From Candidatus Binataceae bacterium (lineage in GTDB: Bacteria > Desulfobacterota > Binatia > Binatales > Binataceae), in contig CAWCTG010000032.1 in assembly GCA_963798375.1 (NCBI GenBank), positions 72,232 through 136,231 of the forward strand: DNA of 64,000 nucleotides, in the 5' to 3' direction. The notes below the pieces were generated by a model. The model was not told where the DNA came from. It searched no databases and saw nothing but the letters and a program-made list of their open reading frames with translations. Below are positions 39,197 through 56,267 of this stretch, piece after piece. The translations under genes were made by a program, and so were the position numbers. Position 1 is the stretch's first letter; each line of letters begins with the position of its first letter.

Positions 39197-40621
39197 ATGA
39201 ACAACGACGCTTCATGGACCGCACAGGAACGCGGACCTTACCGGCTGCTGATCGTCGAAGACGAACCCTTGATGCGCTCGATCATCGTGCAGCTCGCGCG
39301 CAGCGAAGGCTACGAGGTAATGGAGGCGCCGGCCGCGGAGGTCGCGCTGCACATCTTCGAAAAAGAAAAAATCGATCTCGCGATTCTCGACCTTAACCTG
39401 ACCAGCGGCGGCAACGGACTCGATCTGCTCCGCAAAATGCGCGAACTCGACCCCGAGGTGATGGGAATAATCGTCACCGCCTACGCCAGCGTCGAGTCAG
39501 CCGTCGAGGCGCTGCACCAGGGCGCTTACGATTACATCACCAAGCCGTTTGCGAACGATCATCTGAAAAAGGTGATGCGCAACGCGCTCGAGGGCAAGGC
39601 GCTGTTCAGGGAAAACCGTTTTCTGCGCCAGGAACTGCGCGAGAAGTATCGCTTCGAGAGCATCATCGGCAAAAGCGACGCCATCGAAAGCGTGTTCCGC
39701 GTCATGGAAAAAGTCGCGCGCACCGACACCAGCGTGTTGATCACCGGCGACTCCGGCACCGGCAAGGAACTGGTGGCCCGCGCGATTCATTTCAGCTCCG
39801 AGCGCGCCAGCAACCGCTTCCTGCCGATCAATTGCGGCGCGCTGCCCGAGAACCTGCTCGAGAGCGAACTGTTCGGCTACAAACGCGGCGCATTCACCGG
39901 CGCCGGGCAGGACAAGGTCGGCCTGCTCAAGGCCGCCGACAAAGGCACCGTCCTGCTCGACGAGATTGGCGAGTTGCCGCTCGCGCTGCAGGTCAAACTG
40001 CTGCGCGCGCTTCAGGAGCGCGAGGTCTATCCGCTTGGCGCCAACGATCCGGTGGCGTTCGACGTGCGCGTGCTGTGCGCCACCAATCGCAACCTCGAAA
40101 GCGAAGTCAAGGCCGGCCGCTTCCGCGAGGAACTGCTCTACCGAATCAACGTCATCAACATCAATCTTCCCGGTTTGCGCGAGCGCCAGGACGATATTCC
40201 CCTGCTCGCCAACCATTTCCTGCGCAAGTACGAAAAGTCGATGTCGCGAACAGCGATGCGCTTTTCCAAAGGCGCGATGCGCCTGCTCATCAACTACGCC
40301 TGGCCGGGCAACGTCCGGGAGCTCGAAAACGCCGTCGAGCGCGCCGCCATTCTGGCCGAGACCGACGTCATCCACTCGCACGATTTGCCTGACAAGCTGC
40401 GCAGCACGTCGCCCGTGATGGCGAGTGTCGAGAACCCCGGCCTCACGCTCGAGGAGCTTGAGCGCGAGCATATCAAACTCGTGCTCGACAGAGTCGAAAA
40501 CGACAAGGTGAAGGCCGCGCAGGTGCTCGGGATTCACCTCTCGACGCTCTATCGCAAGGTCCAGCGTTACCACCTCGACGGCGACATCCCCGTGCATCAG
40601 GAGCCTGCGCGCTCGGCGTGA
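39197..40621 (+). CDS. Sigma-54-dependent response regulator (NtrC family: REC + AAA+ + HTH)
   Basis: [11 protein letters not shown]...; Walker [16 protein letters not shown]; GAFTGA motif ([15 protein letters not shown]); C-terminal HTH. Confidence 0.9.
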
Positions 40622-40709: not shown

Positions 40710-40925
40710 ATGGACCTGTTTGCGCCAACTCACCTGCTGATCATTTTGCTGATCATTTTGGTCATCTTCGGGCCTAGCAAGCTCGGCGATGTCGGCGGCG
40801 CGATGGGCAAAGCGATTCGCGATTTCAAGCGCGCGATGAACGAGCCCGACGACGCCGCCAAGACGGTCGCGAAGACCGACGACGCCAAGGCGGCCGAGGC
40901 CGTAAAACCCGACAAACTTTCCTGA
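40710..40925 (+). CDS. tatA: Twin-arginine translocase subunit TatA/E
   Basis: MDLFAPTHLLIILLIILVIFGPSKLGDVGGAMGKAIRDFK. Confidence 0.9.
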   Translation: MDLFAPTHLLIILLIILVIFGPSKLGDVGGAMGKAIRDFKRAMNEPDDAAKTVAKTDDAKAAEAVKPDKLS

Positions 40926-42337: not shown

Positions 42338-43395
42338 TTGCCGACGGCGGGCGCCCGAAATGGAGACGGCAATATGGAGGGGGAACGCAGCTCGCGAAAG
42401 TTTTGGGCAGGTCTTTTGGTGGCGCTGGTCGCGTTTGGAATCGCCTCCCTGGTTTCATCGCCCCCCGCAATCGGCATGGAAGGCACCCTGCTTTCCCAAG
42501 CCACAGGATCGGGGACCCGGCTACCGCCGGGCTATGTCCATAATGACACCTGCACCAGTTGCCATGATGTATCGGTCAAGTCCTTCCGCAAGACAATGAT
42601 GGGCCATCTTATGATGGGCCAGCCGCGCGACGAGGAGGAAGGCCTCGCGTGCCAGGCCTGTCATGGTCCCGGCCGCGAGCATCTACGCCATCCGAGCAAG
42701 CCGTCGCCGGGATTTCTGAGTTTTCGCGAGACCACCTTCACCGACATCAAGATTGAGAACGACCGGTGCCTCGCATGCCATCAAAACGGCGAGCGCGGGT
42801 TCTGGCGAGCCAGCGCCCACGCCGAGCGCGGCATTCGATGCGTTGATTGCCACGCCGTGATGTGTCCGGTGACGGCGAGCGCGCTGCCGCAGGCGCAACT
42901 CAAGAAGTCACCGCTTGGCACTGAATTCATCAACCCGTTCGTCGTGACGCGGCCCGAAACGCAGGTCTGCCTGCGCTGCCATCTCGACAAAAAGATGGAA
43001 ATCAATTTGCCGTCGCACATGCCGCTGCGCGAGGGGTTGATGACGTGCACCGACTGCCACAACCCGCACGGCGGACCGTATCAGAAGCAATTGCGGGCGG
43101 CGATGGTCAATGAGGTCTGCTACCGCTGTCATGCCGAAAAGCGCGGGCCGTTCCTCTGGATGCACGCGCCGGTGGCGATGAACTGCCTCAATTGCCATAT
43201 CCCGCACGGCAGCGTCAACCAGCACATGCTGGTGATCAACATGCCGGTGCTCTGCCAGCGCTGCCACATCGGCACCCGTCATCCGAGTGAGCCACAGAGG
43301 GGGGGTCAATTTTCGTGATCAACCAGCAATGCGCCAATTGCCATTCGCAGATACACGGCTCGAGCTCGCCGGGCGGGAGATATTTCACGCGCTGA
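42338..43395 (+). CDS. Periplasmic decaheme c-type cytochrome, MtrA/MtoA/PioA family. The reading frame is broken at the G7 run 43299-43305, which places the tenth CXXCH (CANCHSQIHGS) in the +1 frame.
   Basis: Nine CXXCH motifs in ORF 42338-43318 (CTSCH, CQACH, CLACH, CVDCH, CLRCH, CTDCH, CYRCH, CLNCH, CQRCH). The next frame reads INQQCANCHSQIHGSSSPGGRYFTR*, a typical MtrA-family C-terminus. N-terminal signal/anchor present. Confidence 0.8.
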
Positions 43396-43466
43396 AGCGG
43401 GAGGCAGAGGAACGCACGGCATCGCTGGGCCGCACCGCGTCTTGCAGCCGGCCCGGGAGGAAAGTC

Positions 43467-45722
43467 ATGAACCTGAAGCGGTTGTTAGCCGGATGTGGAA
43501 CGATGGCGCTCGTGTTGTCGATGCTTTCGCCGGCGCTGGCACAGGTCGATTTCGCGCAATTCACAGCGCAGGGTTCGGTCGAGGCCGGCGCCATTCCCCA
43601 GCCTGTCCCTTATACCAATGTCGCGGAGTATCAGCAGTACCGCGATCTGGCGCAGCAGTTCATCGTTCCGCAACTGCAGTTGATCCTGGGCGACAAGGCG
43701 GAGAACTACTACGTCCAGTTCGACGCCATCAACGTCGCGCAAAAGAACCAGATGTATTCGCTGCGCTTCGGCGAGTACGGTCTGCTCGATGTTCAGGCAA
43801 AATTCTTCGAGATTCCACACAACTTCAGCAACGGCATCGCGAGCACGCCGTACAACCAGGAAGGCGGCAACTTCACTCTATCCTCGAAGCCCACTGGTAC
43901 CGGCCCCGCGCTCGATTCCTGGCTGACAGCGAACGCCAAAACGTTCGACATGAGCCTGCTCGAAGGTGTCGCGGACATCGACGTGCGCTATACGCCGACG
44001 CCGTCGCTGACCTTCAGTGCGAACATGGATTACCAGAACCCCACCGGCCAACAGCCATTCGGCGGCTCCTTTCTGTTTGGCACCAGCCCGGGTACTTACA
44101 AAGTGAACGAACTGTTCCTGCCAATCCAGTACTACACCTATAACTTCGGCACCGGCATCGAATACGCGAAAAACGGATGGATGGTGGGTTTCCAGTACCA
44201 GGGGTCCTTCTTCGTCGACGACTACAGCACCCTGACCTGGGACAACCCCCTCAATACCAGCGGAGTAGGCAGCAAATGCGTTGATTCCACCGTTTTCACT
44301 TCCACCTCGCTCACCGGCCCCTGCCAGGGACGGGCAGCCATGTACCCGAACAACCAGGCTCACAACTTCATCGTGAACGGAACGGGTCAGCTTCCATTCA
44401 ACACACACGTGATGGGGAGCCTCGAGTACGGATTCTGGCTCCAGAACGCTCCCTTCATCCCGCTTACGGCCAACAGCAAGTTGCAGCAGTCATTAAGTTC
44501 GGTAGGAGCGCCTAATAGCCTCGGCGGCGACGTGCAGCCTTTCTTTGCCAACTTCACGATCGATAGCAATCCAATCGAACCGCTGGATCTAAAGGCGACC
44601 TATTCCTATTTCGATTACGACAACCTGACGCCGGCGATCACCTTCACAGGTGTTAAGTCGCTGAATGACGTAGCGGACGCGCAGACGCCTTTCACCGCTT
44701 ATCCCTTTGCATTCTCGGAGCAGGACGTCAGCCTCGAGCCAACCTACCGCCTGACTGATACTCTCGCCACACACTTTATGTTCAAGTGGCAGACCAACCA
44801 CAACGGCGGGCTGGAGGTGCTACAGCAGGATCAAACCAGCTACGGACCCGCGCTCGATTGGAACCCATACCCGTGGCTGACTTTCCGGGCGGACTACCAG
44901 CACGCGCACCGCGACTCGCCGGGATACAACAACAACCGCGCCAGCCTGGTCCAGGTGCTTGGCGGGACCCCGGGAGAGATCGAGGAGCTTCAGAGCCTCT
45001 GGCGGTTCGACGAGGCCACGCTCGATGTGAACCAGACCTCGCTCTATGCCTCCGCGCAGCCGATCGAACAACTCACGCTGTTCGCCGCCTTCAATTACGA
45101 CGACTATAACTACCCCAACAGCGACTTCGGCCTGGAGCACACTTCGGACTATTCGCCGTCGGTGGGGGCCAGTTGGGAACCGATGCCAGGCATGCACCTT
45201 TTTAGCGACTACTCCTGGCAGGCGTACGATTGGAACCTATGGTCACAGGACGAGACTACTATTCCGGCGGCGAAGCCTCCGCCTGGAAAAACGAACGCTT
45301 GGGAGGCCAGGGGCCGCAACCAGGGCAACAATATCGATTTCGGCACGGACATCGCGATACCGCCGAATCGCATTCTGCCGCGGCCGTCGCACCTGAAACT
45401 CCAGTACACCTACACGGTTGGCAACAACAGCACCCACCAATCGGGGGCTACCTCGGCCGGGGCGTCAGGGGAGGCGATCGACTATCCCGATGTCGGCAGC
45501 CAGTTCCAAGAGTTGATAATTCAGTACCAGTACGATTTGCTTGACAACCTGGCTATCAACGTCGGCTACTACTTCACTCACTCCAACGAAAACAATTTCA
45601 TGGTGGACAACATGAGGAACTACATGCCGAATGCAAGCGCAAATTCGACATTTCTCGGCAACACCGACATAGCTCCTTACAACGTCAATGTCGCATTCAT
45701 AACCCTGAAGTACAAATTTTAG
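43467..45722 (+). CDS. Large outer-membrane beta-barrel protein (~752 aa), MtrB/MtoB/PioB-like porin partner of the decaheme cytochrome
   Basis: Signal peptide MNLKRLLAGCGTMALVLSMLSPALAQ. Y/N/G/S/T/Q-rich with alternating amphipathic strands. Ends in an aromatic C-terminus ...AFITLKYKF. Sits immediately downstream of the MtrA-like gene. The listed ORF start 43287 is an artefactual upstream extension. Confidence 0.7.
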   Translation: MNLKRLLAGCGTMALVLSMLSPALAQVDFAQFTAQGSVEAGAIPQPVPYTNVAEYQQYRDLAQQFIVPQLQLILGDKAENYYVQFDAINVAQKNQMYSLRFGEYGLLDVQAKFFEIPHNFSNGIASTPYNQEGGNFTLSSKPTGTGPALDSWLTANAKTFDMSLLEGVADIDVRYTPTPSLTFSANMDYQNPTGQQPFGGSFLFGTSPGTYKVNELFLPIQYYTYNFGTGIEYAKNGWMVGFQYQGSFFVDDYSTLTWDNPLNTSGVGSKCVDSTVFTSTSLTGPCQGRAAMYPNNQAHNFIVNGTGQLPFNTHVMGSLEYGFWLQNAPFIPLTANSKLQQSLSSVGAPNSLGGDVQPFFANFTIDSNPIEPLDLKATYSYFDYDNLTPAITFTGVKSLNDVADAQTPFTAYPFAFSEQDVSLEPTYRLTDTLATHFMFKWQTNHNGGLEVLQQDQTSYGPALDWNPYPWLTFRADYQHAHRDSPGYNNNRASLVQVLGGTPGEIEELQSLWRFDEATLDVNQTSLYASAQPIEQLTLFAAFNYDDYNYPNSDFGLEHTSDYSPSVGASWEPMPGMHLFSDYSWQAYDWNLWSQDETTIPAAKPPPGKTNAWEARGRNQGNNIDFGTDIAIPPNRILPRPSHLKLQYTYTVGNNSTHQSGATSAGASGEAIDYPDVGSQFQELIIQYQYDLLDNLAINVGYYFTHSNENNFMVDNMRNYMPNASANSTFLGNTDIAPYNVNVAFITLKYKF

Positions 45723-45845
45723 GCCAAGCCTATTAAGGTACTTGGAGCGAGAGGCCGGAACACAAACAACGAATGACCTATCGTCCGCGGCGGCCCGGCC
45801 CGCAAACCAATTGGCGGACAAGGATTGTAAGGAAGGAGAGAAGCT

Positions 45846-46259
45846 ATGTCGAAGAGTTTGAGAACGAAGATTCGATCGAGACTCTGGATTTGGACCGCGT
45901 CGGCCATACCAGCAGTTGCAGTGCTGGCGTTGATCTCAACCTGCGCCCGCGCAGCCGATCTCACGGCCGCGGCCGGCAGTTACTCGGATACCTGCGCTAA
46001 GTGTCACGGCCCGGCCGGCAAGGGCGATGGCCCCAAAGCGGCCGAACTGAAAGACAAGGACGGCAAGCCGGTCACCATCGGAGATTTATCCGATTGTGCC
46101 AAGATGAGCAAGATAACCGATGACGACATGTTCAAGGAGCTGAAAGAGGGCGGCGCGTCAGTAGGCAAGAGCAAGTTCATGACTCCCTATGGCGATGCGA
46201 TGGAGGACGACGAGATCAAAGGGCTGGTCGCTTATGTCAGAACCTTGTGCAAGAAGTAG
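45846..46259 (+). CDS. Monoheme class-I cytochrome c, secreted (MtoD/Cyc1-like candidate periplasmic shuttle), paralog 1
   Basis: Signal peptide; single CAKCH; conserved C-terminus LVAYVRTLCKK. Confidence 0.8.
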   Translation: MSKSLRTKIRSRLWIWTASAIPAVAVLALISTCARAADLTAAAGSYSDTCAKCHGPAGKGDGPKAAELKDKDGKPVTIGDLSDCAKMSKITDDDMFKELKEGGASVGKSKFMTPYGDAMEDDEIKGLVAYVRTLCKK

Positions 46260-46280
46260 CGGCGCGCGCCACATCGGCGA

Positions 46281-46406
46281 TCGACTGTATCAATACTGGC
46301 ACCCGGTTCCATGAGTTGATATTTCAGTGCGAGTACGATTTTGCGCGATAACATCGCGTCATCGCAGGCTACTACTCCAGCAATTGTGGCGAACATAATT
46401 TCATGG
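46281..46406 (+). repeat. Degraded duplicate of the porin-gene 3' region (cf. 45480-45603), footprint of a tandem segmental duplication that generated the second monoheme cytochrome gene
   Basis: ~75% identity by direct alignment. Both cytochrome genes end ...tgcaagaagtagcggcgcgcgcca. Both have an AAGGAAGGAGAG-type SD. Confidence 0.7.
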
Positions 46407-46423
46407 AGGGAAGGAGAGGAGCA

Positions 46424-46825
46424 ATGAGAACTAAGATTCGATCGATACTGTGGGTTTGGACCGTGTCGGCCATACCGGCGGTTGCAGCGCTGGCGTTGAT
46501 CTCAACCGGCGCCCGCGCAGCCGATCTCACGGCCGCGGCCAGCAGTTACTCGGATACGTGCGCTAAGTGTCACGGCCCGCTCGGCAAGGGCGACGGCCCC
46601 AAAGCTGCCGAACTGAAAGACAAGGACGGCAAGGTGGTCCCCAGCGGAGATTTGTCCGATTGCGCCAAGATGGCCAAGGTTACTGACGACGACATGTTCA
46701 AGGAGCTCAAGGAAGGCGGCCAGGCGGTCGGCAAGAGCAAGTTCATGACTCCCTATGGCGACGCGATGGAGGACGACGAGATCAAGGCGATGGTTGCGTA
46801 CGTCAGAACCTTGTGCAAGAAGTAG
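46424..46825 (+). CDS. Monoheme class-I cytochrome c, paralog 2 (tandem duplicate of 45846-46259)
   Basis: MRTKIRSILWVWTVSAIPAVAALALIS...CAKCHGP...MVAYVRTLCKK; ~85% aa identity to paralog 1. Confidence 0.8.
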   Translation: MRTKIRSILWVWTVSAIPAVAALALISTGARAADLTAAASSYSDTCAKCHGPLGKGDGPKAAELKDKDGKVVPSGDLSDCAKMAKVTDDDMFKELKEGGQAVGKSKFMTPYGDAMEDDEIKAMVAYVRTLCKK

Positions 46826-47113
46826 CGGCGCGCGCCAGGCTCCAGAATGAGCCTCGGCGCGCGGGGTTGAAAGCGAGCAGTCTCAGGCAGCGGCCGGCTT
46901 GTAGTTCGCCGGCGGTGTCGCGCAGCAGTTGTACTCGCGCTCGCCCTGACCACTCAAAGCTGGCAAGTGAAAGGCCTCGCACTGGTAACCGGCTGAACCT
47001 CACCAGAGAGCGACCCAGGACAAGCGGGTCCGATCCCAGGGATCGGACCGCTTGCCGCTCGGAAACCGGGCGTCGCTTCCCCAGATTTTCGAGAGAAGCT
47101 ACGCAGGTGGAAT

Positions 47114-48655
47114 ATGCAAACGAGCGGAGATGAGCCGGGCGCACCGGGATCGGAGCGCCCGGCACGGCAAAATGGCGCCGAGGCCGAACGCCAATTACCA
47201 AGCCTGGCTCGCAACCGGCTGAGCATCGCCGGCCTGATCATCGCCGTCATCGTCTTGGCGGACATGGTTTCCCTGGCTGGCATGACGCTGCTAGGGGTGC
47301 AGTTGAACCCCTACGTCGGCATTTTTGCCTACCTGATCGGTCCGGCCGTCATGATATTCGGCCTGTTGCTCATTCCGGCCGGGATGGCACTCGAACGGCG
47401 ACGGCGCCGGAAGTTTCTGCCGGGTGAGCTGCCGCCCTTTCCCAAGCTCGATCTCAACGAGCCTTCGGTTCGGCGCGGCTTTCTCGGCGCGGTAGGCTTT
47501 TCGATGTTTTTTGTGGTTCTGAGCCTGGCGGCAAGCTACCAAGGCTACCAGTTCACGGACTCGGTGATGTTCTGCGGCCAGACCTGTCACGTCCCGATGA
47601 AGCCGGAATTCGACGCCTACCAGGATTCGCCGCACGCGCGGGTCGCATGCGCGGACTGCCACGTAGGACCCGGCGCCACTTGGTTTGTTCGCTCCAAGCT
47701 GTCGGGCGCCTATCAGGTCTATGCGGTAATGTTCAACAAGTACCCCAGACCGATTGAAACCCCCATCAAGGATTTGCGCCCGGTTCAGGCAGCCTGCGAG
47801 CAATGCCATTGGCCGCAGAAGTTCTACGGCGCGCAACTCAAGGTCTTCGCGCATTATGCCTACGACGAGAAGAACACGCCCACGCGCATCCAGATGCTGA
47901 TCAAGACCGGAGGAGGAGCTGCCGAGTTCGGCCGCGCCACCGGAATCCACTGGCACATGAACATCGCCAACCAAGTATGGTTCGCGGCTACTGACACGCA
48001 GTCCCAGGTGATTCCATGGGTGAAGGTAAGGACCCCCGACGGAAGGACCACGGAATACACTGCCAAGGGCACTTCGCTGACCCCAAAGCAGATTGCGGCG
48101 ATTCCCATCCAGACGATGGACTGTGTGAGCTGCCATGCCCGCCCGTCCCATAAGTTTCTTCCGCCCGATCAGGCGGTCGATGCGTCGTTCGAGGCGGGCC
48201 AGCTCGACCCTACGCTTCCCTTCTTGAAGAGGCAGGCGGTCAAGGCTCTGCTCAAGCGCTATGACACGTCGGAACACGCGACCGAGGGAATCGCCACCGC
48301 CCTCGATACCTTTTACCAGGATCGCTATCCCCAGATTTATGCCGCCAAGGCGCAGCAAATCGGGGCCGCCATTGCCGCCGTGCAGCACATCTACACAACC
48401 AACATCTTTTCGTTTATGCGGGTTGATTGGCGCACGCATCCCGATAACATCGGCCACCTTTATTACGCGGGATGCTTCCGCTGTCACGACGGGCAGCACG
48501 TCAGCGCCGATGGCCGGGTGATACCCCAGCAATGCGAAACCTGTCACACGGTCCTTGCATCTCCCAACAGTGTCGCCGAGTTCAAGCATCCAGTTGATCT
48601 GAACGATGTAGGCGGCGCGACCTGCAGCACCTGTCATACCGGAGGCGTCCTGTAA
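47114..48655 (+). CDS. Membrane-anchored heptaheme c-type cytochrome, NapC/NirT-related (ImcH-like candidate quinol/quinone oxidoreductase)
   Basis: Two N-terminal TM helices; seven CXXCH (CGQTCH, CADCH, CEQCH, CVSCH, CFRCH, CETCH, CSTCH); 513 aa. Confidence 0.7.
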   Translation: MQTSGDEPGAPGSERPARQNGAEAERQLPSLARNRLSIAGLIIAVIVLADMVSLAGMTLLGVQLNPYVGIFAYLIGPAVMIFGLLLIPAGMALERRRRRKFLPGELPPFPKLDLNEPSVRRGFLGAVGFSMFFVVLSLAASYQGYQFTDSVMFCGQTCHVPMKPEFDAYQDSPHARVACADCHVGPGATWFVRSKLSGAYQVYAVMFNKYPRPIETPIKDLRPVQAACEQCHWPQKFYGAQLKVFAHYAYDEKNTPTRIQMLIKTGGGAAEFGRATGIHWHMNIANQVWFAATDTQSQVIPWVKVRTPDGRTTEYTAKGTSLTPKQIAAIPIQTMDCVSCHARPSHKFLPPDQAVDASFEAGQLDPTLPFLKRQAVKALLKRYDTSEHATEGIATALDTFYQDRYPQIYAAKAQQIGAAIAAVQHIYTTNIFSFMRVDWRTHPDNIGHLYYAGCFRCHDGQHVSADGRVIPQQCETCHTVLASPNSVAEFKHPVDLNDVGGATCSTCHTGGVL

Positions 48656-48679
48656 GCGAATCGGCGCGGCGCAGGCGGT

Positions 48680-50056
48680 GTGAGACAAATGACGCACGGA
48701 TCAGGGCGTATGGTTAGCTCAGGGCGGACGGTTAGCGGCCTCGGGCGCGCCGCGTGCGCTATTGCGGCAATGCTGCTGTACGCAGTTGCAACGGCGCAGG
48801 CCGCTCCGACCAAGGCCGCTCCGCCGAAGGCCGCTAAGACGACGAGAGCCGGTAAGACGACGAAAGCCGCTCCGGCGAAGCCGCTCACCGATAGCGATTG
48901 CCTGTCCTGTCATAATCTTAAGGCCAGCGCCAAGTTACAGGCGCGGCCGGTTAGCGTGTACGTCAATGCGGAGATATACCAGCCCTCGGTCCACGCGAAG
49001 CTGGGTTGTGTCTCCTGCCATTCTGACATCCATGCCTTTCCTCATCCCGATCCGGTCAAGCCGGTTTCCTGCGCCGGCTGCCACGCGAGTGAGACTTCGG
49101 CCTATGCGGGCAGCGTTCACGCTATCGCCGAGCGGGAGAAGAAGAGCCGCTTTCCGGCCTGTCTCAATTGTCACGGAAACCCCCACGGCCTCCGCGCCAA
49201 GACTGACCCGAAGTCGCGAGTTTACCCGCTCAACCTGCCGGGCACCTGCGGCACCTGCCACGGTAACCCCGAGCTTGCCAAGAAATATGGCTTGCCGGAC
49301 GTGTACCCGCTCTACATGGATTCGATTCACGGCTTCGCGCTGAGTGCCGACGGGCTCCTGGTGGCTGCCACCTGCAGCAAGTGCCATGGCGCGCACGATA
49401 TCCTCAGCCGAAAGGACCCGAAGAGCCGGATCTTCTATAAAAATGTGCCTGCCACCTGTGGCGCGTGCCATGCCGGCGTCGAAGTCGAGTACCTTGCCGG
49501 AGCGCACGGCGCGGCGATGATCGCCGGGCGCGCGAATGCTCCGGTATGCACGAATTGCCATACCTCGCATCAGATTACCCAGGTGGACGTCGCTAGCTGG
49601 CAAATCAAAACCGTCGCCACCTGCGGTAACTGTCACAAGACCAGGCTTAGGAGCTACGGCGATACTTTCCACGGCGAGGTGACCGAGCGCGGCTTCGTCT
49701 CCGCGGCGCAATGCTGGAGTTGCCATGGCGCTCACGAAGTTCTTAAGGCCTCCAATCCCAAGTCCAAGGTCGCGCCGGCCAACCTTCTCACCACCTGCGG
49801 CAAGTGCCACGTCGGCGCAACCGCTAGCTTTGTCAAGTACGATCCGCATCCCAATGCGCACGAGCGGCGGCGCAACCCGGCCCTGTATTACGCGGCTCTA
49901 TGCATGGGACTGCTGCGTTTGATTGACCCATTCGGACTGATGGCTGTTGGCGTGGTGCTCGCAATTACGCTCGCTCACGGAATCGGCCAGATCGTGCGGT
50001 ATAACACGGGGACGGACCACTCGGACTCTGACCGCCATTCGGGAGATGAAAAATGA
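48680..50056 (+). CDS. Undecaheme (11 x CXXCH) c-type cytochrome with Sec signal and C-terminal hydrophobic helix
   Basis: CLSCH, CVSCH, CAGCH, CLNCH, CGTCH, CSKCH, CGACH, CTNCH, CGNCH, CWSCH, CGKCH counted. Repeated ...DPKSR... spacing. C-terminal TM LYYAALCMGLLRLIDPFGLMAVGVVLAITLAH. Confidence 0.8.
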   Translation: MRQMTHGSGRMVSSGRTVSGLGRAACAIAAMLLYAVATAQAAPTKAAPPKAAKTTRAGKTTKAAPAKPLTDSDCLSCHNLKASAKLQARPVSVYVNAEIYQPSVHAKLGCVSCHSDIHAFPHPDPVKPVSCAGCHASETSAYAGSVHAIAEREKKSRFPACLNCHGNPHGLRAKTDPKSRVYPLNLPGTCGTCHGNPELAKKYGLPDVYPLYMDSIHGFALSADGLLVAATCSKCHGAHDILSRKDPKSRIFYKNVPATCGACHAGVEVEYLAGAHGAAMIAGRANAPVCTNCHTSHQITQVDVASWQIKTVATCGNCHKTRLRSYGDTFHGEVTERGFVSAAQCWSCHGAHEVLKASNPKSKVAPANLLTTCGKCHVGATASFVKYDPHPNAHERRRNPALYYAALCMGLLRLIDPFGLMAVGVVLAITLAHGIGQIVRYNTGTDHSDSDRHSGDEK

Positions 50057-50145
50057 CCTACGTCGTAGTTGATCCCGTAACGCGCATCGAGGGCCATCTA
50101 CGGATCGAAGCCGAGCTTGACGGCGGCAAGGTGAGGATTCTGTGA
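50053..50145 (+). pseudogene. 30-codon remnant of a [NiFe]-hydrogenase large subunit (N-terminal L1 motif fused to a short C-terminal tail), start/stop-coupled between the 11-heme cytochrome and cytochrome b
   Basis: MTYVVVDPVTRIEGHLRIEAELDGGKVRIL*. VVDPVTRIEGHLRIE matches the universally conserved N-terminus of NiFe hydrogenase large subunits (cf. E. coli HyaB LVVDPITRIEGHMRCEV). Its ATG overlaps the upstream TGA (ATGA) and its TGA overlaps the GTG of the cytochrome b gene. Confidence 0.65.
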
Positions 50146-50843
50146 GTGCGCCACCGCGGCTTGTGCCCGAGCCACCTGGCACTGGCCTTGTTTATGTCTG
50201 GCAACTGCCAGTGCGTTTGTCGCACTGGTTGATCGTCATATCGATAGCTGTGCTAGCGGTTACCGGCTACTTCATCGGCAATCCGTTAATAACAACCGGC
50301 GGACCTGCAAGGGATCGCATCGTCGCAGCCACCATGCGCAGCATCCATCTCTACGCCGCGTGGGTGTTTGGTGTGTCGGTGGTCGTGCGGGTTTACTGGA
50401 TGTTCGCCGGCAGTTACTACGCGCGTTGGGACCAGTTCATTCCGGTCTCGCGCGACCGGCTCAATAGCGTCTGGCAGGCGATGAGGTTTTATAGCTTCCA
50501 GCGCCGCGGCCCACAGCTTTATCCGGGTCATAGCGGCCTTGCCGCGCTGGCTTATACGGGCATCTTCATGATCTACTTTATGGAGATCGTCACCGGCCTG
50601 GCCCTGTACTTCATCTATGCTCCGGCGAATTCGGTCTTTCAGGGTTTTCGCTTTTTAGTCCCAATCTACTCTCGCTTTCTCCACCATATCGGGATGTGGA
50701 TCTTGTTGATGTTCGTGATTCAGCACGTGTACTCGACGATTCTTTTTTCGGTCGAGGAGCGCAGTGGAATCATCGACTCGATGTTCACAGGCTACAAGCG
50801 CATAAGCCCGGAAGCCGAGGAGGAGGCGCATCGCGATGCCTGA
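50142..50843 (+). CDS. Dihaem b-type cytochrome of the Ni/Fe-hydrogenase (HyaC/HydC/FdnI-like) family, membrane quinone-interacting subunit
   Basis: Four TM helices with conserved His (RLSHWLI..., IHLYAAW, HHIGMWILLMFVIQHVYS); family-typical R-x-x-H-W at TM1. Confidence 0.8.
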   Translation: MSAPPRLVPEPPGTGLVYVWQLPVRLSHWLIVISIAVLAVTGYFIGNPLITTGGPARDRIVAATMRSIHLYAAWVFGVSVVVRVYWMFAGSYYARWDQFIPVSRDRLNSVWQAMRFYSFQRRGPQLYPGHSGLAALAYTGIFMIYFMEIVTGLALYFIYAPANSVFQGFRFLVPIYSRFLHHIGMWILLMFVIQHVYSTILFSVEERSGIIDSMFTGYKRISPEAEEEAHRDA

Positions 50844-50891
50844 CGAGTTACTCGAACTCATGAACGCCGCTATCACACAAGGAGAATCGCA

Positions 50892-51656
50892 ATGATATTC
50901 GGTGTAGTCATCTTAATCGCCGCAATCTTCATTCTGAGCGGGGTCAAAGTCCTTAACGAATATCAGCGCGCCGTAGTCTTCCGCCTGGGGCGGCTCATGC
51001 GGTACCGCGGCCCCGGCATAATTTACGTGGTCCCCCTGGTGGAGCGGATGGTCCGGATCGATCTGCGTACCGTCGTGCTCGACATCCCGCCGCAGGACGT
51101 AATCACCAAGGACAACGTGACCGTCAAGGTGAGCGCGGTGCTCTACTTCCGGGTGATCGATCCGTCGCGCGCGGTCACCGAGGTGGCAAATTACCTGTTC
51201 GCCACCATGCAGCTCGCGCAGACCACCCTGCGCTCCGTTGGCGGACAGACCGAACTCGACGAACTTCTGAGCCAGCGCGACAAAGTCAACGCGCGCATCC
51301 AGGCGATCGTCGATGCCCAAACCGAGCCGTGGGGAATCAAGGTCATGCTCGTCGAGCTGAAGAACATTGATCTGCCGCAGGACATGCAGCGCGCGATCGC
51401 CGCCCAGGCCGAGGCCGAGCGCGAACGGCGCGCCAAGGTGATCGCGGCCGAGGGCGAATTTCAGGCGGCGCAGCGCCTGGCCGAGGCGGCGGAAATCATG
51501 GGCAAAAGCCCGATCACGCTCCAGCTTCGCTACCTGCAGACGCTTGCCGAGATCGCGACCGAGCATAATTCGACCACCGTGTTTCCCCTCCCGATCGATC
51601 TGCTCGAGCCCTTTCGCAAGCTGGCAGGCGGCGGCGACGCCGACAAGCCGAAGTAA
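50892..51656 (+). CDS. SPFH/band-7 (stomatin/prohibitin-like) membrane protein
   Basis: N-terminal TM; SPFH core [18 protein letters not shown]...; C-terminal coiled coil [22 protein letters not shown]. Confidence 0.85.
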
Positions 51657-51954
51657 GGGGAGGTCATCGCGGCGCCGTGGACAGATGGCGCCGGCAGTGG
51701 TCGGATCGCTGAGCTGATTTCGACGACGGCCCTGGGCACGCCTGATTGTGGTTGACAAAAGCTTGGAATAAATGTTGCTGATGCTTTAAAGTAAGCGGAT
51801 GAAGGGAGGCTAATGCGTTGGGAAAAACGGAACTGAGGATGCTATCGTCGCACGATGTTCCCAACCATTGTGTCTCAAACGAATACACCTGTGTAGCCTT
51901 TCGTCATGATGTTTGGTAGCGAAGCGAAACGCCTTAGACAAAAGAAGGAGCAGA

Positions 51955-52368
51955 ATGGTCATGTCAGAAAATTCACCGGCGAAGATTCGATCGAAGGGCT
52001 GGAGCTGGACGCCCTTGGCGGCGGGAGTAGCGATGATGCTGGCGCCGGCATTGATCCCAACCGTCGTACGTGCCGCCGAAGTCGATCTGAAGGCCGCGGC
52101 CAGTAATTATTCGGATTCGTGCGTGGACTGCCATGGTGAGTCGGGCAAAGGCGACGGTAAAAAGGCGGCCGACCTGAAGGTCAAGCCCGCCGACTATACC
52201 AATTGCGCAGAGATGACGAAGTTGAGCGACGATTATCTCTTCAACGTCATCAAAAACGGCGGCAAGTCGGTGCACAAGAGCGAGGCCATGGCCGACTTCG
52301 GCAAGGCCTACGACGACGACGAGATTCACGGGCTTGTCGCCTACGTCCGCACGTTCTGCAAAAAGTGA
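51955..52368 (+). CDS. Monoheme class-I cytochrome c, third and more divergent paralog
   Basis: Signal peptide; CVDCHGESGKGDG; C-terminus LVAYVRTFCKK. Confidence 0.75.
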   Translation: MVMSENSPAKIRSKGWSWTPLAAGVAMMLAPALIPTVVRAAEVDLKAAASNYSDSCVDCHGESGKGDGKKAADLKVKPADYTNCAEMTKLSDDYLFNVIKNGGKSVHKSEAMADFGKAYDDDEIHGLVAYVRTFCKK

Positions 52369-52917
52369 GTGCGGCTAGCCGTGCCCGACGGTAATCGCGC
52401 ACAATTTGCGGTCTCGGAAGCCGGCGAAGTTATCGAGAGCGAACCGCGGCGGAAGTTCCTGGCGCGTCTGTTCTGGGGCGCGATGGCCATTGTCAGCGCC
52501 GCCATCGCGGCGCCCGTCATTTCCTATCTGATTATCCCGCTGTTGCGGCCGGGTGAGTCCAACGATTGGGTAAAGATGGGAAACATCGCCGACCTTCCGC
52601 TCAACCTTCCCCAGCGGCTCGAGGTCGGCCGGCGCGTGGTCGAGGGATGGGAAACGGACGATTCGCAGGTGACGGCCTGGGTGGTGCGGATGCCGGACAA
52701 AATCTACGTTTTCGATCCGCATTGCACGCACTTGGGATGCGCCTACCGATGGGTCGAGCAGGAAAAGCAGTTCTTCTGCCCATGCCATGCCGGCGTATTC
52801 AGCCTAACCGGGCAGGTGGTCAGCGGCCCTCCCCCACGTCCGCTGGACGTTTACGCGCACGAGGTCCGCGAGGGCGCCCTTTATGTGGTCCCGACTCCAA
52901 CTAAGCAAGTGGTTTGA
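52369..52917 (+). CDS. Rieske [2Fe-2S] iron-sulfur protein with twin-arginine signal
   Basis: RRKFLARL Tat motif; Rieske boxes CTHLGC and CPCHAGVF; GTG start directly after the upstream stop. Confidence 0.85.
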   Translation: MRLAVPDGNRAQFAVSEAGEVIESEPRRKFLARLFWGAMAIVSAAIAAPVISYLIIPLLRPGESNDWVKMGNIADLPLNLPQRLEVGRRVVEGWETDDSQVTAWVVRMPDKIYVFDPHCTHLGCAYRWVEQEKQFFCPCHAGVFSLTGQVVSGPPPRPLDVYAHEVREGALYVVPTPTKQVV

Positions 52918-54619
52918 CGAGCGCCTCGGCACGCGGGCGATCCGCGTCGCGCTCTTCGATCGCAACATTCCGAAAAGCAGCCCGCTGGTCGAGTGGATCT
53001 ACACGCTCGGCAGCGTGCTGCTGTTCTTTTTCATCCTTCAAGCAGTGACCGGCATGATGCTGGCGATGAACTATGTGGCCAGCCCCGATCACGCCTTCGA
53101 CGCCGCGCGTTACATCTCGCTGCGCGCTCCCATGGGCCAGTTCATCCGTGGGCTTCATTCGTGGGGCGCAACCGCGATGGTGGTGGTGATCGGCGCGCAC
53201 ATGCTGACCACCTTTCTCTCCGGCAGCTACAAGTATCCGCGCGAATCGACCTGGATTACCGGCGTCGTCCTGTTCCTGATCGTGATGTTGTTCGGATTCA
53301 CCGGATATCTGCTGCCCTGGAACCAGAAGTCGTACTGGGCGACCGTGGTCGGCACCAACATCGCGGGCGCGACTCCCTACATCGGGCAGTACATCGTGCG
53401 CTTCTTCCGCGGTGGCAGCGAGGTCGGCCCGCAAACGTTGACCAGATTCTACGCCCTGCACGTGCTGATGCTGCCGGCGGCGCTGATCGTTTTCGTCTCG
53501 GTGCATCTTTTCATGGTCGTGCGCCAGGGCATCTCGGCGCCTCCCAAGCGGCATCCCGAATACGGCCGCCACGGTATCAACGCCCAGCTCGGCATCGACC
53601 CCGGGCTTGGTGTCGGCACCCAGCTCAGCGTCGACGACCAGCGCAGCCGGGCGGCCGACGAATATCATCACGAGAAAGAGGCCGGCGAGTCCTTCTATCC
53701 GTTTTATCTGTCCAAAGACGCTGTCGCCGTGCTGCTGGCGCTTTCGGTGCTGGTGATTTTGGTCTTGAAGTATCCGGCCGAGATCGGCGAGATCGCCGAC
53801 CCCGCCAGCACCAGCTACAATCCGCGCCCGGACTGGTACTTCCTGTTCCTGTTCCAGGCGCTCAAGTATTTTCCCGGCAGCATGGAATCGGTCGCGGCAG
53901 TCATGCTGCCGGGGCTTGCGTTGCTGGTCCTCGTCACAGTGCCCTTCTTCGATCGGCGGATGCGCCAGCATCCGCTGGACCGCCCGATCGCAACCGGCTT
54001 TGCGCTCTCCACGCTGGTCGGCGTGATCGCGTTGACCGTGATCGGCGCGCGATCGCCGCTGCTCAACCCATATGTGCCGGAGCTGCCGACCGTCGCCGAG
54101 GGTCACCGGCTCTTTCACACGCTCAATTGCGCATACTGCCACGCCGTCAATGGCCGCGGGAGCAGGATTGGGCCCGATCTGATGCTGGATCCCCTCAAGC
54201 ACGACAAGGCTTGGATAGTCCTCCATCTCGAGCGGCCCGGCGAAGTCTTTCGGCCCGGCGCCCGCACCGCAATGACCGGATTGTTGCCGGAGGAAAGCGC
54301 GGACCTGTTCGACTACATCAATGAGCTGCAGGGCGGCGGCCCCTATAGCGACAAGGCGTCCCGGCTGTTCTACCGAAATTGCGGCAAGTGCCACATGGTG
54401 GCAGGCCACGGCGGCGCCAAGGCTCCCGATCTGAGCGGAATCGGGCTGGTGCGGTCGGTTTCGTTCATCCACCGCTACATCGAGGATCCGAAGGCCCTCT
54501 ACAGCCAGACCAAGATGCCGCCGTTCTTGCAGCCGCAGGGCAAGCTGACCCACCCCGAAATCGAGGACATCGCGCGCTTTCTCGCGCATCAGCGCACACC
54601 GGCGCCACCTAAAAACTGA
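52883..54619 (+). CDS. Cytochrome b (b6 plus subunit-IV-like, fused) with a C-terminal dihaem cytochrome c domain: the cytochrome b/c subunit of a Rieske/cyt b complex
   Basis: Cytochrome b6 N-terminus LSKWFDERLG; haem-ligating His in TM helices; PEWY-like region PDWYFLFLFQALK; two C-terminal CXXCH (CAYCH, CGKCH). Confidence 0.85.
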   Translation: MWSRLQLSKWFDERLGTRAIRVALFDRNIPKSSPLVEWIYTLGSVLLFFFILQAVTGMMLAMNYVASPDHAFDAARYISLRAPMGQFIRGLHSWGATAMVVVIGAHMLTTFLSGSYKYPRESTWITGVVLFLIVMLFGFTGYLLPWNQKSYWATVVGTNIAGATPYIGQYIVRFFRGGSEVGPQTLTRFYALHVLMLPAALIVFVSVHLFMVVRQGISAPPKRHPEYGRHGINAQLGIDPGLGVGTQLSVDDQRSRAADEYHHEKEAGESFYPFYLSKDAVAVLLALSVLVILVLKYPAEIGEIADPASTSYNPRPDWYFLFLFQALKYFPGSMESVAAVMLPGLALLVLVTVPFFDRRMRQHPLDRPIATGFALSTLVGVIALTVIGARSPLLNPYVPELPTVAEGHRLFHTLNCAYCHAVNGRGSRIGPDLMLDPLKHDKAWIVLHLERPGEVFRPGARTAMTGLLPEESADLFDYINELQGGGPYSDKASRLFYRNCGKCHMVAGHGGAKAPDLSGIGLVRSVSFIHRYIEDPKALYSQTKMPPFLQPQGKLTHPEIEDIARFLAHQRTPAPPKN

Positions 54620-56267
54620 TCCGCGCGCCCCCCGCCGATCCCCTAAAAGCTGTTGAAATTGGAGTGGCGGTCATCCTCGCCCGATCGGAAGATCGGGTGG
54701 AGTTTAACGAGGAGGACGCCCTGAGGAAGGGTGCCAAGAGGTGAGGGAGTGGAAAGACAGCCGTTGGCGAAGGACAACTGTGGTTGCGATATGCGGGTTT
54801 GTACGCGAGGCGAAGTTCGGCCGATCGCTGGCAACGGAATCCGCGCCTGTCAGCAAATGTGGATAGCCGAATCTGCATTGCGTCAGCGCGAGAGGCGAAC
54901 CGTGAAGCGACAAGCGGAGGATGCCGCTAATGAGAATTCACGAGAACGAGAACCGGAATGTCCGAACTAAAGACAAATGGAAGAATGCAAGCAGGATTCA
55001 AGAACGCTCAACTTGAAGCAGACTGTCGAGAACGTCTTCGACAGAAGCTGACAGTTGCGTCAATGAGGCGGCATGCCTTCCTGGTAGTACGAACACCATA
55101 ATGATTCCCAGTTTCTCGAATTTGCCGAGGTTGGACAAACTCAGGGCACTTGCTATCGAACTTAATTCCGCACTGCTCGAAGAATTCGACTCTTACAATG
55201 ACGTTCCTCTAGACGAGCGGTCGCTTCTCAAAAGGGAAGGCTGAGAACTTAGCGCGATGGGATACGGGCCGATTTGGATCATACTGGGCGCGGGCGTCTG
55301 CCCGATCCGATGAAACATGTTCAAAGCGATAGCGAGCCTCGCTCGCGCTTGTGGGCCGTTTTCGTGGCTGGCACTCTTAAGAATTCTTTGGCATTTGGCG
55401 GCGGAAAGCCGATAGCAAGTAGTGGGTTCGAATTTTGTGACTAACCGGGGGACTGTTTATGTCGATTTTTCGGACCGCTCTCGGTATGCGCCACGGCTAT
55501 GGGATCAGGGAGTGGCGCAGCGCCTCCTTGAGCAGCCACCATGGAGCTCTTAGCGGAGAGTCCGACGCCCACGGGGATGCTGGCATGCGAGAATAATAAG
55601 AGTCACGCAATCAGTTTCACCATGTCGGAAAGTCGAAAAAAGTGCCAAACGATATCGCGCTCGATGGCCCAGGCCCGCAGGGCCCGCCGGGTCCAGCCTC
55701 GACAACTATCGTCCCAACCGCCTCGCAGGTCTGCGATTGCTATTGTACCGCACCCCCGTGCGATTACAATTCCCCGAACGCAGAAGTTGTTTCGCAATGC
55801 CCGGATGGTGAAGTCGTCGTCGGCGGCACCTACACCTTCGACTTTGACGAGTATTATAATAAAGCCTTTGATTTCTGGGCAGTTCGGCTTGCGGGCTTCC
55901 CGATCTCACGCGGTGACCGATGGGTTATGTCGGATAGCGCTTGAGGTCGATTCACCGTCCACTGAATCAACACGGCTATACCAACGGTTTTCCGAGCTGA
56001 TGCAGGGCAGCGCTACTGTATTGCCTACCGTCGAAGCCACCCCATCGGTGTCATACGACGGGGATTCGGCGTCGTCACCGAAGAAGAAGTAGCGACACGG
56101 AAAGGAGAGCCTGAGGGAAGAAAAGTCTTTTTGGCATACCGTCACGTCCGCCAGGTCGAACTGAGCCCGCAGCACTGCGACTTATCGTCATCGAGCGCGA
56201 GCGTACTCGCGGCCTTGAGATTTGCGACAGACGCGACGAATAGCGTCCGCTTCGATCACTCCGATGA

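Follow-up and report, generated by a model that had tools for sequence, protein, structure and literature searches.

Gene content of the locus

A 64,000-nt stretch of the genome of a Candidatus Binataceae bacterium (GenBank assembly GCA_963798375.1, contig CAWCTG010000032.1, positions 72,232 to 136,231; hereafter the window) contains a cluster of genes for c-type cytochromes, an outer-membrane beta-barrel and a Rieske/cytochrome b complex, which together represent a candidate outer-membrane electron conduit. According to the listing of open reading frames (ORFs) and to Pfam and NCBIfam scans, all cluster genes are co-directional and located on the + strand between 42.3 and 54.6 kb. They encode, in this order, an MtoA/MtrA-like decahaem cytochrome c, an MtoB/MtrB/PioB-like beta-barrel, two tandem monohaem class-I cytochromes c, an ImcH-type inner-membrane cytochrome, an 11-haem cytochrome c, a HyaC-type dihaem cytochrome b preceded by a relic of a [NiFe]-hydrogenase gene, an SPFH/Band-7 membrane protein, a third monohaem cytochrome c, a Rieske [2Fe-2S] subunit and a cytochrome b fused to a dihaem cytochrome c. 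Every gene named by an earlier reading of the sequence alone (the original prediction) was recovered in this interval and on this strand, and the SPFH gene, which that reading had overlooked, was added. Two start sites were corrected (mtoA to an ATG at 42374 rather than 42338, and the barrel gene to 43467 rather than 43287), and a previously listed ORF at 46813-47133 was rejected as spurious.

The cluster contains 32 in-frame c-type haem binding motifs, which are distributed over the MtoA-like protein (nine), the three monohaem cytochromes (one each), the ImcH-type protein (six CXXCH and one CX3CH), the 11-haem cytochrome (11) and the cytochrome b fusion (two). A 33rd motif, CANCHSQIHGS, is the tenth of the MtoA-like protein and lies in the -1 frame past a run of seven G (G7). 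The predicted total of at least 33 is thus reached, but its last motif depends on a repair of the mtoA frame. Across the whole 64 kb, no CXXCH-bearing ORF of at least 80 aa exists outside the seven cytochrome ORFs of the cluster, which argues against a chance clustering of cytochrome genes. The same survey of CXXCH-bearing ORFs of at least 80 aa yielded no MtrC/OmcA-like extracellular cytochrome in the window, so the arrangement resembles MtoAB/PioAB rather than MtrCAB.

Relatives of the cluster were compared by tblastn over 57 loci and by gene tables (L-numbers denote relative loci). Pairwise dN/dS values between the window and the JGI contig L004 range from 0.13 to 0.52 across all cluster genes, indicating that the cluster is under purifying selection. 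Signal peptides and topology were evaluated from hydropathy and N-terminal sequences; signal peptides fit MtoA, MtoB, the three monohaem cytochromes and the 11-haem protein, and membrane anchors fit the C-terminus of the 11-haem protein and the N-terminus of the Rieske protein.

The predicted outer-membrane conduit

The mtoA/mtrA-like gene (42374..43395, + strand) encodes a protein with a hydrophobic, signal-like N-terminal segment that scores 205 bits against TIGR03508 (DmsE/MtrA family; cut-off 192.2), even from the truncated in-frame ORF, and that aligns over residues 59-322 with Shewanella MtrA (6R2Q_A, E 4.8e-47). The in-frame ORF contains nine CXXCH motifs and ends at a stop at 43318, shortly after the G7 run at 43299-43305, past which the -1 frame carries motif number ten and a C-terminus typical of MtrA (CANCHSQIHGSSSPGGRYFTR before the stop codon). 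At this site the window has 11 nt (AGGGGGGGTCA) where four orthologues have 12 nt (AGGAAGGGATCA), which corresponds to a 1-nt deletion in mtoA. Intact orthologues in L001, L004 and L006 encode 340 aa with ten CXXCH motifs, and restoring a single G gives a window MtoA of the same length and motif number that is collinear with them and has a dN/dS of 0.25 versus L004. The protein predicted as an MtrA-like decahaem cytochrome therefore belongs to this family by profile and homology, but acquires its tenth haem only after the missing G is restored.

We consider old decay a less likely cause of the frameshift than a sequencing error at the homopolymer or a very recent lesion, because the frameshift falls in a G7 run (one of seven homopolymers of at least 7 nt in the 64-kb window), because the out-of-frame tail is conserved, with the 30 codons following the frameshift essentially as in L004, and because comparable breaks occur in a related assembly. 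In the latter, the long-read assembly L003, the genes for MoCoBD, WS_DGAT and POR are each split into two or three ORFs, whereas they are intact in the sister locus L001; such splits are typical of indel errors in long-read assemblies of metagenome-assembled genomes (MAGs).

Alternatively, the deletion could be real, in which case the tenth haem and the C-terminus would be lost, the outer-membrane step would be gone and the cluster would be inactive in this genome while otherwise functional across the lineage. The frameshift is present in the sequence as given, an NHL-repeat gene elsewhere in the window (569-4010) carries a frame change and in-frame stops that are not of the homopolymer type, and a 2.8-kb insertion free of long ORFs lies just downstream of the cluster. 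On the other hand, the break in mtoA is the sole one in approximately 25 kb collinear with L004, it sits in the G7 run, the tail beyond it is conserved, and the remaining cluster genes are intact and under purifying selection. We therefore regard inactivity as unlikely. Of the cluster genes, only mtoA thus shows a possible sign of the pseudogenisation that the original prediction had named as grounds for rejecting its proposal.

In the broken NHL gene the frame changes near position 1474, and in-frame stops are located at 2145, 2271 and 2361, together with a long Thr/Ala/Pro-rich low-complexity linker. The C-terminal part of the product shares 74% identity with a 938-aa NHL protein encoded directly upstream of mtoA in L006 and L008, and an intact 1263-aa NHL paralogue follows in the window (4680-8471). 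A link between NHL-repeat proteins and the conduit is possible; NHL or TPR neighbours of such genes are not mentioned by He et al. (2017).

The barrel gene (43467..45722, + strand) is separated from mtoA by 66 nt, both in the orthologues and in the window after frame repair, and the two genes are adjacent in all relatives. Its product matches PF11854 with 253 bits (gathering score 23, E 9e-75) over profile positions 10-635 of 635, and its close relatives carry the NCBI name MtrB/PioB family. A signal peptide, MNLKRLLAGCGTMALVLSMLSPALA, followed by Q as the next residue, was read from the sequence. An AlphaFold (AF2) model built from an alignment of 39 sequences (pLDDT 78) contains approximately 26 long strands, counted from the DSSP string rather than from coordinates, compared with the 26-28 expected by the original prediction. 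In a Foldseek search, the best match of this model was MtrB (6R2Q_B, E 4.7e-38, TMt 0.88, rmsd 3.8 Å), followed by 22-strand TonB-dependent transporters with TM-scores of about 0.4. The relationship to MtrB is visible only by the Pfam profile and the fold. Both the decahaem protein and the barrel thus show the profile similarity whose lack would have counted against the original prediction.

Predicted periplasmic cytochromes and quinone-linked modules

Downstream of the barrel gene, two monohaem class-I cytochromes c are encoded in tandem (copy 1, 45846..46259; copy 2, 46424..46825; both + strand). Copy 1 matches PF00034/PF13442, contains one CXXCH and has a signal-like N-terminus; its best PDB match by phmmer is the Kuenenia cytochrome 6H5L_B. 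Copy 2, likewise identified by Pfam and with one CXXCH, is a tandem duplicate of copy 1, as shown by a 300-nt direct repeat with 89% identity and a 566-nt period, and both copies are found in all loci with the long variant of the cluster (see below). The third monohaem cytochrome c (copy 3, 51955..52368, + strand; PF13442/PF00034, one CXXCH) is approximately 52-55% identical to copy 1 and abuts the Rieske gene. In the relatives, copy 3 is always located immediately 5' of the Rieske gene or of a gene for an ActA-like protein.

The next gene (47114..48655, + strand) encodes a 513-aa protein with a NapC/NirT-like region (PF03264, 40 bits). ImcH proteins have been defined by a length of 495-519 aa, three N-terminal transmembrane segments, a CX3CH motif adjoining the transmembrane region and six CX2CH motifs (PMC6295460). 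The window protein shows hydropathy peaks at about 36-54, 69-87 and 122-140 in a Kyte-Doolittle scan, a CX3CH motif at 154 and CXXCH motifs at 179, 228, 337, 454, 474 and 504. The spacing of these motifs (25, 49, 109, 117, 20 and 30) closely follows that of G. sulfurreducens GSU3259 (24, 49, 106, 117, 20 and 38; PMC6295460 Table S3). It is 56% identical to a homologue from a Koribacter MAG, as one of the homologues at 55-60% identity within a very large family, and Koribacter versatilis Acid345_2712 is listed among the ImcH homologues (PMC6295460). By length, transmembrane segments and motif spacing, the protein predicted as a 7-haem NapC-family membrane cytochrome thus fits the ImcH family. 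A 2018 survey recorded ImcH in no organisms other than Fe(III) reducers, and in no case next to mtoAB (PMC6295460). The presence of imcH beside mtoAB in this cluster contradicts the generalisation that the two do not co-localise, and weakens ImcH as a marker of reduction only.

The 11-haem cytochrome c (48680..50056, + strand) contains 11 CXXCH motifs, which are also present in its orthologues in L004 and L007, a signal peptide and a hydrophobic segment at 414-432 that would serve as C-terminal membrane anchor. It is followed by the gene for a HyaC-type dihaem cytochrome b (50142..50843, + strand), with 138.2 bits against TIGR02125 (equivalog cut-off 121.5) and 92 bits against PF01292, so that the predicted pairing of an 11-haem cytochrome with a HyaC-type cytochrome b holds. 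L035 encodes a 654-aa fusion of a multihaem c and a Ni_hydr_CYTB domain, the architecture of CbcL, MtrH and MtoC. Its halves are 34% and 31% identical to the 11-haem protein of L004 and to the 276-aa cytochrome b encoded next to it, the comparison having been made with the L004 pair and not with the HyaC-type cytochrome b of the window. Being encoded by two genes, the 11-haem/cytochrome b pair is probably a split relative of the CbcL/MtrH/MtoC fusions and not a member of this group as defined.

The HyaC-type cytochrome b is 65-68% identical to the hyaC product encoded after an intact hydrogenase large-subunit gene in L027. In the window it is not encoded together with hydrogenase subunits; it is preceded only by a relic of a [NiFe]-hydrogenase large-subunit gene (50053..50145, + strand), whose translation corresponds to the N-terminal 30 codons (MTYVVVDPVTRIEGH...). 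The same arrangement of relic and HyaC-type gene was found in L058, which is collinear over 46425-53473 and has a cytochrome b of 93% identity, and in L059 and L060 (83%), and at the same place in L059 (7807-7956) a 49-aa ORF joins the N-terminus of the large subunit to its C-terminal tail. In L004, L007, L013, L014 and L021, the 11-haem gene is instead followed by the gene for a 276-aa, weakly PF01292-like and unrelated-looking cytochrome b, and L059 and L060 contain both kinds of 11-haem/cytochrome b pair. A window-specific replacement or a misassembly is ruled out by the independent assemblies L058, L059 and L060. The HyaC-type gene is thus a natural allele, and the large-subunit fossil in front of it is evidence that its cytochrome b derives from a hydrogenase operon. 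Its product is therefore a recruited homologue and does not function as a hydrogenase subunit. The relic shows how a CbcL-type quinone module can arise from a hydrogenase cytochrome b.

Two groups of relatives contain further modules of this kind. The region 1-8900 of L059 and L060 encodes three multihaem-c/cytochrome-b pairs, namely an 11-haem cytochrome with a 275-aa cytochrome b, an inverted pair of a 342-aa multihaem protein and a 241-aa cytochrome b, and a second 11-haem cytochrome with the HyaC-type cytochrome b; a dCache histidine kinase and a GerE-type regulator are encoded between them. L027, which is located on the same 3.24-Mb contig as L001 and L012, contains a second mtoAB cluster, a paralogue at approximately 50% identity that includes separate cytochrome c genes and a pair of an 11-haem cytochrome and a 276-aa cytochrome b, and a [NiFe]-hydrogenase operon (large-subunit end and hyaC) lies approximately 9 kb upstream of it.

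The SPFH/Band-7 gene (50892..51656, + strand; PF01145, 132 bits) is 92-94% identical and occupies the same position in the long-variant loci that include this region; it was not found in L022. Copy 3 of the monohaem cytochrome c and a Rieske/cytochrome b complex follow. The Rieske subunit (52369..52917, + strand; PF00355, 40 bits) has a twin-arginine motif (RRKFL), the cluster-binding sequences CTHLGC...CPCH and a transmembrane segment at 41-59 as membrane anchor. The cytochrome b fusion (52883..54619, + strand) consists of a b6-like N-terminal domain (PF00033, 170 bits), a subunit-IV-like domain (PF00032, 36 bits) and a C-terminus that matches PF00034 in two stretches, with CXXCH motifs at 416 and 500; the scores for PF00355, PF00033 and PF00032 are all above their cut-offs. 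The protein matches cytochrome b6 structures (E 1e-47) and is 90% identical to its L004 orthologue with a dN/dS of 0.20. No separate gene for cytochrome c1 or f was found, and the dihaem c domain is fused to cytochrome b instead. Cytochrome b variants with a fused c domain are known in several bacterial lineages. Motifs, Pfam scores and the cytochrome b6 match thus bear out the Tat-Rieske protein and the dihaem c fusion as a genuine complex.

Conservation and variants of the cluster

The source organism is a Candidatus Binatus (Binatota). An exact look-up returned no record of the window's barrel protein, and barrel homologues with 80-90% identity are labelled Candidatus Binatus or Binataceae, with 85-90% for the best relatives, and the genome matches include Ca. 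Binatus soli UBA7539, Ca. Binatus sp. SPRUCE 224 and a MAG from palsa. At the DNA level, the window is 89-93% identical to L004 over 33135-58281. The same order of 11 genes, with 80-90% identity, occurs in L004, L013 (palsa), L014 (SPRUCE peat), L021 and L058 and represents the long form of the cluster. A second long form, found in L007, L008, L015 and L024, carries genes for an ActA-like multihaem protein and a molybdopterin-oxidoreductase-like protein in place of the Rieske/cytochrome b genes and therefore has an end resembling alternative complex III (ACIII). L001 and L012 contain a short form consisting of mtoA, mtoB, one cytochrome c gene and the Rieske and cytochrome b genes. In L006 and L009, mtoAB occurs alone, with NHL, Kelch, TPR or NapC-like genes or transposases as neighbours.

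The single cytochrome c gene of the short form (12377-12781 in L001 and L012) aligns over its full length to copy 1 (45846-46259) and with its 3' part to copy 3 (52069-52368), resembling copy 1 at its 5' end and copy 3 at its 3' end. Recombination between cytochrome c paralogues may therefore account for the loss, or the gain, of the 5.7-kb block of imcH, the 11-haem gene, the cytochrome b gene and the SPFH gene.

More distant loci, with barrels of 32-36% identity, are found in MAGs labelled Binatia, Acidiferrales, Verrucomicrobiia, Syntrophobacteraceae and 'Deltaproteobacteria'. In these, mtoAB and a cytochrome c gene are followed either by a module encoding an ActA-like protein, a Mo-protein, a 4Fe-4S protein and NrfD (L041), or by genes for a multihaem protein, a Rieske protein and cytochrome b (L031, L032, L035, L038 and L050). 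Every kind of module in the window, an ImcH-like protein included, is also encoded by L035, labelled Verrucomicrobiia. Across the phyla given in the MAG labels, and despite the module swaps, MtoAB and cytochrome c stay linked to a complex-III-type module, which argues against chance adjacency. A dedicated partnership of MtoAB with a Rieske/cytochrome b or ACIII-like complex, the two being interchangeable, might accordingly exist in MAGs labelled to several phyla (Binatia, Acidobacteriota, Verrucomicrobiota and Syntrophobacteraceae-labelled lineages) as a portable unit of conduit, monohaem cytochrome c and complex III, a proposal that we advance tentatively and with more doubt than confidence.

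The conserved link also bears on a different role for the conduit, unrelated to iron or minerals, in which a DmsE/MtrA-type wire would serve, for example, Mn(II) oxidation or an enzyme on the cell surface, and the bc complex and ImcH would merely be nearby respiratory genes. The best NCBIfam model of the MtoA-like protein represents the generic DmsE family, a distant MtoAB-like pair is present in Candidatus Manganitrophus (L057), and NHL, Kelch and TPR proteins are encoded directly beside mtoAB in L006, L008 and L009. We consider such a role very improbable, as neither the persistence of the complex-III-type link across MAG-labelled phyla and module swaps nor the gene content of the window, in which no DmsAB-like or other surface-enzyme gene was found, agrees with it.

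Neighbouring genes and regulation

Upstream of the cluster, the window encodes a sensor histidine kinase (37441..39183, + strand; HisKA and HATPase_c), an NtrC-type sigma-54-dependent response regulator (39197..40621, + strand; Response_reg, Sigma54_activat and HTH_8) and TatA (40710..40925, + strand; TatA_B_E, 60.9 bits; 100% amino acid identity to TatA of L004). These three genes had been predicted to lie just upstream as a PAS kinase, a sigma-54 activator and tatA; all are present, but the PAS domain is sub-threshold (PAS_4, 15.9 bits versus a cut-off of 23.1), and a minus-strand gene for a PNP_UDP_1 nucleoside-phosphorylase-like protein (about 41030-41800; Pfam) separates tatA from mtoA. 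In the collinear region of L004 (7884-8518, corresponding to 41016-41988 in the window), this gene is replaced locally by one for an HTH (XRE-type) regulator.

The kinase is conserved upstream in L004, L007, L011, L021 and L022, and the activator is 96-97% identical in L004, L007, L011 and L021; no match to either was found upstream of mtoA in L013, L014 and L001. A sigma-54 -24/-12 motif was found neither in the window nor upstream of mtoA, imcH and the third cytochrome c gene in the orthologues, in both cases with strict and relaxed patterns (the latter with GG/GC fixed and at least 8 of 11 matches). Strict motifs (TGGCACGCGCATTGCC and TGGCACGCCCATTGCC) are present at 19122 in L007 and 21549 in L024, approximately 60 nt 5' of the ActA-like gene. 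Scans for sigma-70 promoters and terminators gave results indistinguishable from shuffled controls. The kinase and the activator are tied to the cluster by adjacency only; the intervening minus-strand gene, the lack of a sigma-54 motif and the different neighbours of several orthologous loci do not support co-regulation.

Downstream, the stretch 54620-57457 (2.8 kb) has a lower G+C content (0.55-0.58), a longest ORF of at most 183 aa, no repeats and no Pfam or Rfam match. It is missing from the collinear loci L004, L059 and L060, where the gene for the cytochrome b-dihaem c fusion is directly followed by a radical-SAM gene, and is a window-specific insertion.

Proposed pathway and direction of electron flow

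Taken together, we interpret the locus, with somewhat more confidence than doubt, as an Mto/Pio-type outer-membrane electron conduit of Candidatus Binatus that is linked to the quinone pool and whose direction is not readable from sequence. MtoA, facing the periplasm and threaded into the 26-strand MtoB, would span the outer membrane without an extracellular partner of the MtrC type, and the monohaem cytochromes would shuttle electrons over the periplasm. Three modules could connect to the quinone pool, namely the ImcH-type 7-haem cytochrome, the split CbcL/MtoC-type module of the 11-haem c and the hydrogenase-derived dihaem cytochrome b, and the Rieske/cytochrome b complex with its own dihaem c and the abutting monohaem c gene. 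The SPFH protein might organise these membrane complexes, which is speculative. We infer that the parts form one pathway; the sequences themselves show to which families the proteins belong, the predicted fold, signals of topology, a conserved order of genes and purifying selection.

If the conduit is used for electron uptake, electrons from extracellular Fe(II), reduced humics or minerals would enter via MtoAB, and the quinone would be reduced via the ImcH- and CbcL-type modules; alternatively, a high-potential monohaem c would hand them either to an oxidase or to the bc complex running in reverse. We lean, with modest confidence, towards uptake for several reasons. First, no MtrC/OmcA-like gene is present in the 64 kb, and the carriers are class-I monohaem cytochromes as in Gallionellaceae mto clusters and not low-potential multihaem proteins. 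Second, Fe(II) oxidisers are known in which mtoAB is accompanied by a partner of the MtoC or the cytochrome b-dihaem c type, and Castelle et al. came to the same inference for the RBG-1 cluster (PMC3903129). Third, the position of a cytochrome c gene ahead of the bc genes parallels the cycA-...-petABC uphill branch of Acidithiobacillus ferrooxidans.

Several observations weigh against the interpretation as a functional Mto-type conduit used for uptake. The barrel reaches 202 bits against TIGR03509 and stays under the cut-off of 240, a shortfall that suggests a divergent MtrB/PioB subfamily, and a phmmer search of the PDB returned no match for it, MtrB included. A search of copy 1 (the only copy searched) against all PDB chains (phmmer, E <= 0.01) returned no MtoD entry (4XXL). 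The gene mtoA is out of frame in the window sequence itself, and the window holds a second broken gene with in-frame stops, so that real pseudogenisation is possible. Gaps of approximately 290-390 nt precede imcH and the third cytochrome c gene, and the locus may therefore comprise up to three transcription units. Furthermore, Binatota have been reconstructed as aerobic methylotrophs and alkane degraders using ACIII, with no statement of a lithoautotrophy that would require reverse electron flow, and the sole role for which ImcH has been characterised genetically is that of a quinol oxidase sending electrons outwards (PMC6295460).

The last two points lead to the opposite direction, in which the conduit would serve the anaerobic respiration of organically complexed Fe(III), Mn(IV), humic quinones or particulate organic matter of peat. 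Depending on the potential of the acceptor, quinol would then be oxidised by ImcH, by the CbcL-type module or by the bc complex, in the manner of ImcH, CbcL and CbcBA in Geobacter, and MtoAB alone would supply soluble or colloidal acceptors. Besides the CbcL-type module and the ImcH family membership, ImcH having no known role other than quinol oxidation in Fe(III) reducers (PMC6295460), this direction agrees with the prediction of Binatota as organotrophs and with the origin of relatives from peat and palsa MAGs (L013 and L014). Syntenic Mtr-like clusters of other phyla are transcribed in anoxic peat and have been interpreted as serving outward transfer (10.64898/2026.05.27.727921). Against outward use stand the lack of an extracellular multihaem cytochrome in the 64 kb and the assignment of the closest described clusters (RBG-1 and Gallionellaceae) to oxidation, as well as the class-I monohaem carriers. 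Cytochromes of this class usually have a high potential and make poor electron donors for MtrA-type haems. Also against outward use, no bc complex is known to have a documented role in Fe(III) respiration in model reducers. In favour of outward flow, Fe(III)/Fe(II) couples have a higher potential in acidic bogs, sufficient to take electrons from bc-reduced cytochrome c. We therefore treat outward transfer as a serious possibility that falls short of being the probable one; a bidirectional conduit is also plausible.

Comparison with known systems and implications

The closest described counterpart is a cluster in the aquifer sediment genome RBG-1, which encodes MtrA, MtrB, two monohaem and several multihaem cytochromes and PetAB in one place and for which mixotrophic Fe(II) oxidation was favoured (Castelle et al. 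2013, Nat Commun, PMC3903129). Compared by description, both clusters share this set of components, with periplasmic or inner-membrane multihaem cytochromes and no extracellular cytochrome (PMC3903129). RBG-1 belongs to another phylum, and an ImcH-type protein, a hydrogenase-derived cytochrome b and an SPFH protein are not mentioned for it (PMC3903129). The combination of such modules in one locus, to which the original prediction pointed, is thus not a first, since MtrAB, monohaem c, multihaem c and PetAB were described together for RBG-1 in 2013 (PMC3903129) and mto clusters with MtoC or a cytochrome b-dihaem c are known from Gallionellaceae.

The mto clusters comprise mtoA-mtoB-mtoD-imoA(cymA) plus PmcA in strain ES-1, mtoABCD in ES-2 and RCB, and mtoAB with Cytc1, Cytc2 and a cytochrome b561-dihaem c in culture KS. 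In Gallionellaceae, PmcA connects MtoA with ImoA, and an oxidase is the probable recipient of electrons from the high-potential MtoD. The Binatus cluster shares with the Gallionellaceae and Dechloromonas clusters a decahaem cytochrome and a porin without MtrC, small monohaem cytochromes and a quinone-active inner-membrane partner (MtoC, a CbcL homologue, or a cytochrome b-dihaem c). It differs in its larger inner-membrane set, with ImcH, the split CbcL-type module and a true Rieske/cytochrome b complex, and in its host, which is uncultured, presumably organotrophic and not a known Fe(II) oxidiser.

With the MtrCAB-CymA system of Shewanella, the locus shares MtrA homology (E 5e-47) and the MtrB fold (TM 0.88, 6R2Q), whereas MtrC/OmcA and CymA are lacking in the window, the barrel identity in the structural alignment is 17% and the inner-membrane partners are different. 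The Geobacter systems are reflected in the ImcH-type protein, with three transmembrane segments, one CX3CH and six CXXCH at near-identical spacing, and in the combination of a multihaem c with a HydC/HyaC-type dihaem b as in CbcL. Unlike CbcL, the window module is encoded by two separate genes, contains 11 haems instead of nine and includes a cytochrome b gene flanked by a hydrogenase relic. The parallel drawn by the original prediction to Mto/Mtr/Pio conduits with ImcH/Cbc modules accordingly extends to the conduit, the ImcH-type protein and the split CbcL-type module, but not to copy 1 of the monohaem cytochromes, which has no detectable homology to MtoD.

In the pet operon of A. ferrooxidans (cycA-sdrA-petA-petB-petC), a gene for a periplasmic cytochrome c likewise lies directly ahead of the bc genes, a likeness of organisation only, and the bc complex is dedicated to iron oxidation and runs in reverse. 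That system uses the outer-membrane cytochrome Cyc2 rather than MtoAB, its cytochrome c is of the dihaem c4 type, and c1 forms a subunit of its own. Clusters for extracellular electron transfer (EET) in peat Acidobacteriota and Verrucomicrobiota also combine a porin and multihaem cytochromes in synteny, in uncultured peat bacteria, and are transcribed in situ (Fiorito et al. 2026 preprint, 10.64898/2026.05.27.727921). In contrast to the locus described here, they include extracellular multihaem cytochromes, and Binatia, ImcH, MtrB by name and Rieske/bc are not mentioned there (10.64898/2026.05.27.727921).

Each component is a member or a split relative of a described family. A literature search on Binatia or Binatota combined with Mto, Mtr, EET and iron returned no description of the cluster. 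Within the searched literature, the presence and conservation of the cluster in Binatia, the adjacency of imcH to mtoAB, the interchange of bc and ACIII-like genes at one position, and a hydrogenase-derived cytochrome b with its relic are apparently undescribed.

Binatota are abundant in soils and peat and have no cultured representative, and a conserved conduit would possibly add electron exchange with iron and humics to their metabolism. The repeated linkage of mtoAB, cytochrome c and bc or ACIII-like genes through module swaps supports the long-proposed, weakly evidenced coupling of such conduits to complex III. If the tentative portable unit of conduit, monohaem cytochrome c and complex III is real, it would allow supposedly aerobic, organotrophic soil and peat bacteria to trade electrons with iron or humics via a proton-motive Q-cycle enzyme, and in Binatus this unit would have been extended by ImcH and by a CbcL-like module caught in mid-assembly from a hydrogenase cytochrome b.

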